A stretch of 64,000 nt of DNA from an uncultured Desulfocapsa sp. (GCA_947311475.1 CAMZLK010000056.1:33765-97764); one strand, 5' to 3'; numbered from the stretch's first letter, positions 44,391 through 48,129 are shown. Numbers and translations are program-made. The notes: a model not told the origin generated them from the sequence alone.

Positions 44391-44528
44391 TAACGCAGAT
44401 AAACTGCAAGTAAGTGCTTCCAAGGCTTCTCTTCGTTCGCTATCTATTGCTATTCGTAAGATTTTGATATTGTTTCACTCTCATATATTCTTGTTTTTTA
44501 TTGCAGGAATCATAGGGTAAGGCACAAA
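44391..44528 (+). repeat. Repeat family A, copy 4 (between the c and b cytochrome genes)
   Basis: TAACGCAGATAAACTGCAAGTAAGTGC...CTTCGTTCGCTATCTATTGCTATTCGTAAGATTTTGATATTG...GTAAGGCACAAA, closely similar to 1717-1855. Confidence 0.85.
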
Positions 44529-45459: not shown

Positions 45460-45765
45460 GTGGTAATGCATAATAGACTACCGACACATACGCGTCTCGG
45501 CACATATATTACCATGGCACTCTTGTTACTTTTTTTTCTTTTTATGCTGAGAAATTGTGCCAGCGCACTGTATTATGGTACAATAACCAATGACTTGGAT
45601 ATTTCCAGGTCATACCAGTCAGGTTTTGCAGATGGCCAGGAGCAAAGTGAAAATCTGAAAGGACAGCCCAAAAAACACATTGCGAATCCACTTCTTTTAA
45701 AAATGTACAGAAAGGGATTTCGTGACAGTAGAGATAAAAACAGGTGTAAAGATGAAATACGTTAA
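45460..45765 (+). CDS. Small membrane-anchored hypothetical protein
   Basis: One hydrophobic helix, Y..GF.DG and YRKGF.D repeats; 12 nt from the next gene. Confidence 0.55.
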   Translation: MVMHNRLPTHTRLGTYITMALLLLFFLFMLRNCASALYYGTITNDLDISRSYQSGFADGQEQSENLKGQPKKHIANPLLLKMYRKGFRDSRDKNRCKDEIR

Positions 45766-45777
45766 GAAGAGGAAAAA

Positions 45778-46563
45778 ATGAAAAGAAAGAGCCATATAAC
45801 CATATTCTCCGTTTTTCTTTTTTGTTGCCTTAGCTCATCGCCCGCTTTTGTGTTTTCTGACGTTATAGATATTCCGACCATCGAAGCGGAAGCATTAAAA
45901 AACGAATTGTACCATGGAGCGCCGATGGTTCTTGCCAATGCTTTGAGTTCCATAGAATTTAAAGATTTAACCATCAAAGAATCGGTTAATATACCATCGA
46001 GTAAAGTACAGGGAAATCTAAATCTTCCAAAGGATAAAGATGAATTATTTGTTTTCTTCTGCAAAGGACCTGGCTGACTTAAGAGCATTATAGCTGCCAG
46101 GAAGGCAGTAAAACTTGGATATACAAATGTTAAATTATATAATGGTGGACTTCCTGATTGGATCAGAAGGAGATATCCGGTTATTCGCACTATCAACTAT
46201 CCAAAGGCAGATATCCCTCTGATGTACCCTGAGCAGGTTCTTTCAATGCTTGATAAAATAGTTATACTTGATATTGGTGGAGAAGCGCTACGACAGATAG
46301 GTGAATTTAATCAGGGGGAAGTCGTACATATACCCATTGATGATCTTGAAGAAAAATATAGTGATCTCCCTAAAGATAAAAAAATTATGATTGTTGACGT
46401 AATGGGTAAACAGGAAGAAATTGCTGGTAGGTTTTTGACGTCCAAAGGCTACAAAAATCTGGCGGCAATTAATGGTGGTGGCCGTGCCTGGTTCATGGCA
46501 GTCAGAATAAATGAAAAGCAAAAAAAAGAAACTTCTGAAAAAGCTTTAAATAACCAGAAGTAA
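45778..46563 (+). CDS. Exported tandem rhodanese-domain protein with selenocysteine (UGA at 46075-46077), 261 aa
   Basis: Signal peptide. FVFFCKGPG-TGA-LKSIIAARKAVKLGYTNVKLYNGGLPDW continues without stops (48 codons) into the 46222..46563 ORF in the same frame. SECIS-like hairpin follows. Confidence 0.8.
46093..46109 (+). promoter_or_regulatory. Putative bacterial SECIS hairpin
   Basis: GCTGCC-AGGAA-GGCAGT; the loop starts 21 nt after the UGA with G at loop position 2, fitting the general bacterial SECIS model. Confidence 0.65.
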
Positions 46564-46628
46564 TGGATCCCTTTCCAGTCAAAGATAGCAATGGCTCAGG
46601 TCAGGAAGTTCTCATCAGAATTTCCCGG

Positions 46629-46798
46629 GAGCTTGTCTGAGAATAGGCATTTTGGTCAAAATCGAAGAATTTTTGAAAATAAGTACAGCCATGTATCTAA
46701 TATTAAGAACATTATTTTCCAACAATTCTGAAGAGTTTGGCCAGGTAGCGAACAAAGAGAGACCTTCGAGGCACTTACTTGCAGTTTATCTGCGTTAG
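46629..46798. repeat. Composite repeat: family B left part fused to a reverse family A end
   Basis: GAGCTTGTCTGAGAAT...ACAATTCTGAAGAGTTTGG (B) abuts GGTAGCGAACAAAGAGAGACCTTCGAGGCACTTACTTGCAGTTTATCTGCGTTAG (A, reverse). Confidence 0.8.
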
Positions 46799-47184
46799 TA
46801 TCGTTAGGCTGGTATCGATACTGAAAAGCACATAGATTTCATTCATTTCCACCCCAAAACTACTCAACTGATTACCATCCCATAAAATTTTTACCCCCTC
46901 CTGTTTTTTGTGTAGAAAGGTTCTACCCTACTTCTTTTTCGATCCAATATACTCTCGCGCTCTTTCAGTATTTTATTATTTTATAATATCTTTAAACTGA
47001 GACTTGACAAACAGGAAAGATGGCAGTATGCATCTTCCTCAGTAGTTGAATTTCACCACTTCGTAGTAGCACACTATGTGGTGATAACGATAATTACTCT
47101 CAGTTTTTATTACTCCTGAATCTTTAATTGCAAGTTTCATTGTCACTTCATTTCACACTGTTCAATATCTACCGGAGCATTAAA

Positions 47185-48129
47185 ATGATCAAAAGCCCTT
47201 TGTTACAAAACAGCATTATTGGTATTTCCGTATCTTTTATATTTGCAGGATACAGTTTGGCCAATGACAATTATGATGTCAAAGAATCTGGCCCTAAGAG
47301 TGACATTATCTGGAACCAACCTATTAAAGCGACATTCAGTCATAAAGTCCATACAATGGATGCTGGTTTAAGTTGTTCAGAGTGCCATGACGACATCTTC
47401 TTCATGCAAAGAGGCACTGCTGTTAACAGCCAGAGATTCACCATGAAAGCCATGGATGAAGGTCAATTTTGTGGTAGCTGCCATGATGGCGATACTGCCT
47501 TTTCAACAAAAACAAACTGTATGGCCTGCCATGCGGCATCAGAAGAGCCCATTATGTGGGATCAACCAACTAAAGCAGCATTCAGCCATAAAGCCCATGT
47601 AGAAGAATTCGAGCTTGAGTGCGGAAGTTGCCATAATAGCATCTTCACCATGAAAAAAGGAGCAGCAGAAAACAATAAAAACTTTACAATGGCTACATTT
47701 AGAGAAGGCAAATATTGCGGATCTTGTCACAACGGTGATGATGCTTTCGATTCCACTACCCAATGTGAAGCATGTCATTTCCCCCCCACTGAAAAGATTG
47801 TCTTCACCCAGCCAGTGAAAGCGGTTGTTTTCGACCATAATATTCACTTAAAAAATGGTGGCCTTTCATGTGAATCGTGTCACAAAGAAGTATTCGCCAT
47901 GAAACAGGGAACAGTTGAAGGGCATGAACTGATCCTGTCAGACGATCCTGTGGAAAAGCGAAAATACCTTGAATCCCTTCATAGTCAATATTGTGGTTCA
48001 TGTCATGATTCATCACAGGCATTCGGGTATCTTACAAGATGCACTGTCTGTCATGTTGGAGTGAAGGGTTTAAAAAAGCTTCAAAAAGGAGAGAAAAAGA
48101 AAGATGCTCATGAAACAAGTGCTCATTAA
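47185..48129 (+). CDS. Nonaheme cytochrome c made of three c7-type triheme domains
   Basis: 9 CxxCH; three repeats of FSH/FDH..H....C..CH..IF.M....M....G..CGSCH...AF....C..CH; signal peptide; ATG 47185 after GGAG. Confidence 0.9.
   Translation: MIKSPLLQNSIIGISVSFIFAGYSLANDNYDVKESGPKSDIIWNQPIKATFSHKVHTMDAGLSCSECHDDIFFMQRGTAVNSQRFTMKAMDEGQFCGSCHDGDTAFSTKTNCMACHAASEEPIMWDQPTKAAFSHKAHVEEFELECGSCHNSIFTMKKGAAENNKNFTMATFREGKYCGSCHNGDDAFDSTTQCEACHFPPTEKIVFTQPVKAVVFDHNIHLKNGGLSCESCHKEVFAMKQGTVEGHELILSDDPVEKRKYLESLHSQYCGSCHDSSQAFGYLTRCTVCHVGVKGLKKLQKGEKKKDAHETSAH

Follow-up and report, generated by a model that had tools for sequence, protein, structure and literature searches.

Five rhodanese-like selenoprotein forms are catalogued in reviews of 2022 and 2026, where they are listed by motif (U standing for selenocysteine, Sec) as UxxS for form 1 (Geobacter sulfurreducens WP_010941598.1), UxxG for forms 2 and 4, CxU for form 3 (NF041203, “LYCAU”) and UxxxxU for form 5, or TsoB (NF045694) (PMC9312934; PMC13188914). 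In Geobacter, the extHIJKLMNOPQS cluster combines a rhodanese-like protein (the lipoprotein ExtH), a 104-aa protein, multihaem cytochromes and a cytochrome b with MccSep, a periplasmic pentahaem selenoprotein acting as the polysulfide reductase essential for respiration of elemental sulfur (S0) (PMC5877670; PMC13510729). For Desulfobulbales, periplasmic rhodaneses are described as highly expressed in sulfur metabolism, and genomic work has addressed those of cable bacteria and sulfur disproportionators, Sec being mentioned in neither context (PMC13047784). Here, we characterize the locus 45778–46563 (plus strand) of a 64,000-nt stretch of DNA from an uncultured Desulfocapsa sp. (GCA_947311475.1, CAMZLK010000056.1:33765-97764), which is called the window below and to which all coordinates refer unless a contig is named. 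This locus is one gene for a double-rhodanese predicted to be exported, and the UGA interrupting its frame almost certainly codes for Sec. The kind of protein, a rhodanese-like selenoprotein, is already catalogued; its orthologous group, its architecture and its linkage to cytochromes lie outside every curated model.

Two open reading frames (ORFs), 45778..46077 and 46222..46563, had been listed here, and the proposal of the initial annotation that they constitute a single frame split by one TGA agrees with the translation, since the sole stop between ATG 45778 and TAA 46561–46563 is TGA 46075–46077. Readthrough of 45778–46563 (+) gives 261 aa (designated P0001) containing FFCKGPG-U-LKS; the 48 codons 3′ of the TGA translate as LKSIIAARKAVKLGYTNVKLYNGGLPDWIRRRYPV..., just as had been given, and a Shine-Dalgarno-like GAGG is located at 45769–45772, 5 nt ahead of the ATG.

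TGA is kept at one alignment column in 25 loci, which make up 18 distinct sequences when compared over the 66 nt starting from TGA, with the protein conserved on both sides, and such a coincidence is far beyond chance. DNA of these Sec forms was taken from named metagenome-assembled genomes (MAGs) and metagenomes of the Joint Genome Institute (JGI), being assigned to Desulfobulbaceae, Desulfobulbus and Desulfocapsa or derived from hydrothermal vents. Their loops vary (CKGPG*, CKSPG*, CKGPPG*, CKGLPT* and CKGRL*, with the asterisk for TGA) and are followed by LKS in every case. Cys-form orthologs have TGT or TGC at the UGA column and the loop FFCKGPxC or FYCKGPKC. It had been anticipated that homologs would carry Cys or Sec exactly at this position and that related rhodaneses would have a Cys-type loop there; alignments and fetched DNA bear out the former, and C-K-G-P-x-C of the Cys forms agrees with the latter. 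The opposite outcome, in which close relatives would read TGC or TGT and lack a conserved hairpin, as expected after a simple nonsense mutation, was not observed: close relatives retain TGA together with a conserved covarying hairpin, which favours Sec.

The same division is visible in protein databases, where the search with P0001 yielded two size classes, one of 241–271 aa with Cys at the UGA column and the other of 145–176 aa beginning just past this column, the latter comprising the nearest relatives (64–80% identity). Public gene calls, NCBI assemblies included, cut the Sec forms so that only fragments of 92–99 aa and 145–155 aa (~149 aa) are stored, in line with the expectation that standard gene callers would split or miss the gene. 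Within the 48 codons from TGA to the next ATG, 66% of pairwise differences fall at third codon positions, and the codon changes counted in frame are synonymous in 2839 cases and non-synonymous in 1473, compared to 335/4022 and 266/4076 in the two shifted frames, so that this stretch evolves as coding sequence.

The putative selenocysteine insertion sequence (SECIS) is the hairpin GCTGCC-AGGAA-GGCAGT at 46093–46109, with a 6-bp stem and the loop AGGAA. The initial annotation placed it 21 nt downstream of UGA; the hairpin is indeed present, but 21 nt is the distance to the beginning of the loop, whereas the stem begins 15 nt past the codon. RNAalifold, applied to the Sec-form alignment over the first 50 nt of the 66-nt stretch, returned exactly one helix (columns 19–24 with 30–35, numbered from the U of UGA), in which 99.1% of cells are paired. 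Four stem pairs are invariant, two of them touching four-fold or two-fold degenerate codon positions, while one more pair is U-A in 12 sequences, C-G in 6 and mismatched in none, both changes being synonymous (Ala codons). The C-G state falls in two separated subclades of the tree, implying that the double change occurred at least twice, and unpaired synonymous sites beside the stem vary freely among Sec forms. In the nine Cys-form sequences used as a control, the same helix is paired in 64.8% of cells, its loop-closing pair being broken in 7 of the 9. The residues encoded by the hairpin are A-A-R-x-A-V in both the Sec forms and TsoB, compared to A-A-K-E-A-I in Cys forms, and this difference would fit a constraint imposed by SECIS on the protein sequence. 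Hairpins of 5–6 bp with a G-containing loop are located at approximately the same offset past UGA in TsoB, in two paralogs from contigs C52 and C101 of the source genome (described below) and in the LYCAU gene.

The source genome (G000; 95.6% complete, 220 contigs) was also searched for the Sec machinery, as had been suggested, and all its components sought were found: SelA (519 bits), SelB (645-aa frame, wing domain scoring 70 bits), SelD (375 bits) and tRNA-Sec with anticodon tca. SelD has its own in-frame TGA (AAG-U-AAK, G000:C135:2418) with a strong SECIS, whose apical loop GGA occupies +24–26 from UGA; GG in the rhodanese hairpin is at +26–27.

Two other interpretations of the TGA have to be weighed against these data. 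It might be a true stop, as standard gene callers annotate it, leaving either a pseudogene or two products, namely, an N-terminal piece of 99 aa and a second protein whose translation restarts at ATG 46222. Such a stop would cut the rhodanese fold within the active-site loop; it is conserved in 18 diverged sequences, and purifying selection operates on precisely those 48 codons that are absent from both would-be products. Most relatives have no ATG equivalent to 46222, and callers chose varied upstream starts for them (MKLGY, VKLGY, MKLYNGG). Together with the selected hairpin and the complete Sec machinery, the conserved TGA and the coding selection led us to reject the nonsense mutation or pseudogene as well as the two separate products, and a true stop is judged very improbable. 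Conservation by itself shows readthrough only, so that UGA could in principle be translated as Trp, Cys or Gly owing to near-cognate decoding or an altered code. Nothing specific speaks for this, and it is hardly conceivable given that homologs have Cys, which normally replaces Sec, at the UGA column, that a SECIS-type hairpin is spaced from UGA as in selD of this genome, and that other checked genes of the window and the genome match their families at full length under the standard code, in-frame TGAs being encountered in selenoprotein candidates only. An alternative genetic code was accordingly rejected. Judging by these sequence comparisons, we hold with high confidence that the gene is a genuine selenoprotein gene and that UGA100 would specify Sec.

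As for the protein, Pfam Rhodanese (PF00581) matches P0001 in two stretches (E 3.1e-16, 60.1 bits versus the cut-off 22.2). The AlphaFold2 (AF2) model obtained with a 19-sequence alignment has a mean predicted local distance difference test score (pLDDT) of 87.9 and a predicted template modelling score (pTM) of 0.79, with low pLDDT across residues 1–28. Strand 90–94, loop 95–100 (C-K-G-P-G-U) and helix 101–112 follow one another in this model, and both Cys95 and loop position 100 are nearly invariant in the alignment; as modelled, the catalytic site of domain 1 has the layout expected for a rhodanese, with Cys being the first in a six-residue loop between strand and helix. Foldseek against PDB gave tandem and single rhodaneses as top matches, with 6mxv and 1yt8 among the tandem ones; single domains superpose at 1.6–2.3 Å (3nhv, 3gk5, 3nt6), and full-length superpositions are poor (TM ~0.37). 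Domain 2 repeats the strand-loop-helix unit, so that Asp207 is the first residue past strand 202–206, as Cys95 is past strand 90–94, and both Asp207 and Gln212 of its loop are invariant across the alignment. The assumption that Asp stands here for the catalytic Cys thus holds in the alignment and in the model alike, and domain 2 is, by its sequence, a non-catalytic rhodanese. A correlated change was noticed in the same domain: all Sec forms have EIAGRFL (E-I-A at 46420–46428), and the nearest Cys forms have DICGRFL with an extra Cys. The N-terminus of P0001 (MKRK, hydrophobic stretch, VFS|DV) resembles a signal peptide of type I. Homologs are organized alike (LLA|.., LSA|AA; AxA-like ends), which makes periplasmic location of the rhodanese selenoprotein likely. 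Features of the locus are collected in Table 1.

Table 1. Features assigned to the rhodanese selenoprotein locus and the genes preceding it (window coordinates).
Feature	Position	Strand	Basis
Gene of the 261-aa tandem-rhodanese selenoprotein precursor (predicted exported), complete	45778..46563	+	Single frame, Pfam Rhodanese x2, AF2 model, structural matches
Sec-type signal peptide, predicted, residues 1–27 (MKRK, hydrophobic core, VFS|DV)	45778..45858	+	Sequence by eye, homolog layout
Rhodanese domain 1, putative active domain, ~residues 32–135	45871..46182	+	Pfam best stretch 40–129; single-domain superpositions
Six-residue active-site loop C95-K-G-P-G-U100	46060..46077	+	AF2 secondary structure, alignment
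In-frame UGA, predicted to be read as selenocysteine, residue 100	46075..46077	+	Conserved column, coding pattern downstream
Putative SECIS hairpin GCUGCC-AGGAA-GGCAGU, within A-A-R-K-A-V codons	46093..46109	+	Pairing and covariation
Rhodanese domain 2, without catalytic Cys; loop D207-V-M-G-K-Q212	46213..46497	+	Alignment invariants, AF2 strand
101-aa protein, one hydrophobic helix, ends 12 nt ahead of the rhodanese start	45460..45765	+	Translation, synteny
Cytochrome b, Ni_hydr_CYTB/FdnI-like, 281 aa	44577..45422	+	Pfam PF01292, synteny
Multihaem cytochrome c, 704 aa	42235..44349	+	Pfam Cytochrome_C7, c3, MtrC-like; synteny

Form 1 of the rhodanese-like selenoproteins was reportedly predicted in 2004, and its motif is found in P0001, where U100-L-K-S103 is U-x-x-S within a PF00581 domain. 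Sharing domain and motif, P0001 would be filed as form 1 by the reviews' own criterion (PMC9312934; PMC13188914). Form 1 very probably has just this arrangement, with Sec at loop position 6, the position being deduced via a Geobacteraceae proxy (see below) and not from WP_010941598.1 itself. The best-scoring curated family is NF041203 (rhodanese_LYCAU) with 65 bits at the cut-off of 115; against NF045694 (TsoB), the score is 46 bits at the cut-off of 805, with only profile positions 104–162 matched. Scoring under both cut-offs, P0001 is a member of neither family. The designation of a hidden selenoprotein in the initial annotation is therefore justified in that the protein is genuine and unannotated, but its novelty turns out to be smaller, since five rhodanese-like forms are catalogued (PMC13188914) and the loop position is known in TsoB and in the Geobacteraceae protein.

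Comparison with TsoB brings out both relatedness of the active site and difference in architecture. The loop of TsoB, FVFY-U-AGLT-U-VRSDSAARVAVKLGY, aligned with FVFF-C-KGPG-U-LKSIIAARKAVKLGY of P0001, has its second Sec at the same position, and the two SECIS hairpins (GCAGCC-CGGGU-GGCUGU and GCUGCC-AGGAA-GGCAGU, respectively) are alike in geometry and offset. However, TsoB has Sec also at loop position 1, hence two UGAs, and joins a single rhodanese domain to a DsbD-like membrane domain (~570 aa), whereas P0001 has Cys at position 1, one UGA, a second domain without catalytic Cys and no membrane domain, and belongs to another operon. Among 401 genomes of the phylum, 25 contain a TsoB scoring above the cut-off, with two TGAs in each case. 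LYCAU proteins are similar to P0001 in being exported, as is predicted for the latter, and having Sec near the catalytic Cys, but Sec is two residues past Cys instead of five and the domain is single. A true LYCAU selenoprotein (L049; C126:5104-5469 (+); LVLYCA-U-PNE, 173 bits) is encoded in the source genome as well, with a signal peptide and a hairpin past its UGA, and represents the second exported rhodanese selenoprotein there.

The same genome contains two paralogs with the loop YCGGPT-U-GMS, at C101:325-1296 (-) (L051, P0034) and C52:11454-12038 (-). P0034 is a lipoprotein in which a tandem rhodanese is joined to an N-terminal domain, being 26% identical to P0001 with U aligned to U. Across 301 genomes of the order, this paralog type (27–37% identity) almost always has one TGA and is often represented by two adjacent genes. 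Relatives of the P0034 type are frequent in Desulfobulbales, and public entries for them are mostly 246-aa fragments, one being from Desulfocapsa sulfexigens DSM 10523. The contig search with P0034 returned close Desulfocapsa and Desulfobulbaceae relatives only, with no Geobacter, and in the protein search no Geobacter entry was present among the matches listed.

Geobacteraceae were reached using the Sec peptide of MccSep as a DNA pattern, after which TGA-interrupted rhodanese domains were sought in named genomes. The full back-translated peptide gave 0 matches, and its core IPDG-TGA-PTP occurred in >120 genome contigs including those of Desulfobulbaceae, Nitrospirota and Geobacteraceae; in the source genome, a narrow pattern for an MccSep-like Sec motif retrieved none, which is not evidence of absence. 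Citrifermentans bremense R1 (L197) and Geomonas diazotrophica (L199) encode a multi-domain rhodanese selenoprotein whose loop YFCAGVT-U-ALS conforms to C-x4-U and UxxS at once. Its Sec occupies the loop position found in P0001 and its SECIS has the same offset, but the protein is of ~450 aa and combines an N-terminal domain containing CxxCH with three rhodanese domains. It represents a paralogous lineage like P0034. In L197, the CxxCH haem-binding motif is near the N-terminus and the last of the three rhodanese domains has a normal catalytic Cys. A small cytoplasmic protein of the CxU type, FYC(Q/N)-U-P, was found in C. bremense and Geomonas oryzae.

Orthologs of P0001 detected in the 301 genomes of the order (40–69% identity) are mostly Cys forms, with TGA only in the source genome and one other. 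In the maximum-likelihood tree of 35 sequences, all 15 Sec orthologs form one clade (support 100/100) nested within five or more successive Cys branches, and two Sec paralogs are placed outside the orthologs. The most economical reading would be a single Cys-to-Sec conversion within the orthologous group, the alternative being six or more independent losses of Sec in favour of Cys. Sec-to-Cys loss is the commoner direction and the tree was rooted only by midpoint or outgroup, so that we lean towards the conversion with restrained confidence.

The rhodanese gene closes a tight series consisting of cytochrome c, cytochrome b, the 101-aa protein and the rhodanese itself, the last two gaps being 37 and 12 nt. 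Wherever flanks are available, this order recurs in all orthologs that are at least 52% identical, in Sec and Cys forms alike. Cytochrome b is 68–92% identical across all syntenic loci; the 101-aa protein, which has no match in Pfam or NCBIfam, immediately precedes the rhodanese in most of the orthologous loci fetched (40–55% identity), and the multihaem cytochrome c, syntenic in both Sec and Cys forms, shows DmsE-family similarity under the cut-off. Genes for NrfD and 4Fe-4S proteins usually adjoin the module, on the opposite side in most relatives. Inverted copies of 55 nt (89% complementary) at 44391–44445 and 46743–46797 flank the trio of cytochrome b, small protein and rhodanese; they belong to a dispersed intergenic repeat of ~138 bp, the two gaps giving 448 BLAST high-scoring segment pairs (HSPs) genome-wide, and this repeat accounts for the cytochrome c–cytochrome b gap of 227 nt compared to ~95 nt in relatives. 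A CbcL homologue was discussed for Desulfurivibrio (PMC12545173). The Geobacter ext cluster resembles this locus in its mix of components: a rhodanese-like protein and another one of ~100 aa come together with multihaem cytochromes c, cytochrome b and a selenoprotein that handles sulfane sulfur in the periplasm, or would do so here. Sec is there in the pentahaem cytochrome and here in the rhodanese.

Based on these observations, the following scheme may be proposed. UGA100 would be decoded by SelB with Sec-tRNA(Sec), recruited by the SECIS hairpin, and the signal peptide would carry the Sec-rhodanese to the periplasm. Domain 1 would present a persulfide-carrying Cys95 at loop position 1 and Sec100 at position 6, where the next helix starts. 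In bovine rhodanese, the residue at loop position 6 touches the outer sulfur of the persulfide with its side chain; if the same is true here, selenium would adjoin the Cys95 persulfide. The Cys95/Sec100 pair might then take sulfane sulfur from polysulfide or S0 and store it in a Cys-S-(S)n-Se-Sec bridge, or else operate by selenenylsulfide cycling, with sulfur or electrons exchanged with the co-encoded module of cytochrome c, cytochrome b and small membrane protein linked to the quinone pool. The Sud protein of Wolinella succinogenes, a periplasmic single-domain protein of rhodanese fold which has Cys only, binds polysulfide sulfur and passes it to the molybdoenzyme Psr, a respiratory enzyme of the membrane. 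It may serve as a working analogue of the Sec-rhodanese in the sense of functional likeness only, and the search of PDB sequences with E up to 1 gave no match to any Sud structure. Linkage to the membrane cytochrome module suggests a role in sulfur respiration.

An exported tandem-rhodanese selenoprotein with Cys/Sec sulfur handling encoded beside a cytochrome module is very likely the best overall explanation, and several observations count against parts of it. The signal peptide was assigned by eye, from the sequence and the n-h-c layout of homologs. Covariation in the stem depends on one variable pair alone, and the Rfam scan of 45700–47200 with E up to 10 gave chance matches only and no SECIS family; short bacterial SECIS hairpins are rarely detected by Rfam, and this null result was given little weight for a lineage-specific hairpin of 17 nt. 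The more distant Cys forms (40–50% identity) have no such module within the fetched DNA. Finally, the syntenic ortholog P0030/L043 (JGI Ga0209013_10026768), which keeps the order of cytochrome c, cytochrome b, small protein and rhodanese, reads FYDKGPGMNKS in the loop, with Asp for the catalytic Cys and Met for Sec/Cys; either the activity was lost in this lineage, or the protein may serve a non-catalytic purpose as well. The sulfurtransferase of the initial annotation is accordingly taken as putative. For sulfane-sulfur handling tied specifically to the cytochrome module, our judgement is evenly poised.

A rival explanation accepts the selenoprotein but regards it as a redox-active C-x4-U oxidoreductase, acting on selenite, tellurite or arsenate or in periplasmic thiol-disulfide exchange instead of sulfur transfer. 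The rhodanese fold is used by Cdc25/Acr2-type enzymes as well, the same loop is fused in TsoB to a DsbD-like thiol-disulfide membrane domain, and reduction of selenite and tellurite has been linked to the Geobacter ext cluster with its rhodanese-like protein (PMC5877670). Nevertheless, the loop in the AF2 model has six residues, as in sulfurtransferases, and not the seven of C-x5-R; the conserved module includes no thioredoxin-like or DsbD-like partner, and the organisms and their habitats indicate sulfur cycling, which renders such an oxidoreductase quite unlikely compared to a sulfur-handling selenoprotein. The latter may be extended to a more specific and speculative proposal, unlikely as a whole: the Sec-rhodanese would be the catalytic subunit, handling the substrate, of a quinone-linked polysulfide/S0 oxidoreductase free of molybdopterin, in which sulfane sulfur held as Cys95-S-(S)n-Se-Sec100 is reduced (or formed) directly by haem electrons from the co-encoded split CbcL-like multihaem cytochrome c and cytochrome b. 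Within this orthologous group, a Cys codon would have given rise to Sec, and a coding stretch for Ala-Ala-x-x-Ala to a new SECIS.

Public databases contain both the Sec group and a larger family of Desulfobulbales paralogs, which are periplasmic or lipoprotein rhodaneses, in the form of fragments, and phylogenies, expression counts and structure predictions made from the truncated entries would be wrong. Being strictly linked to a module of cytochrome c and cytochrome b, the Sec-rhodanese is a candidate for handling sulfur in the periplasm of vent Desulfobulbaceae, paralleling the Sec-dependent polysulfide reductase of Geobacter. For the family itself, the rare event suggested by the tree, conversion of Cys to Sec with a SECIS formed within conserved codons of a helix, would be a clean case for studying the origin of a Sec site.

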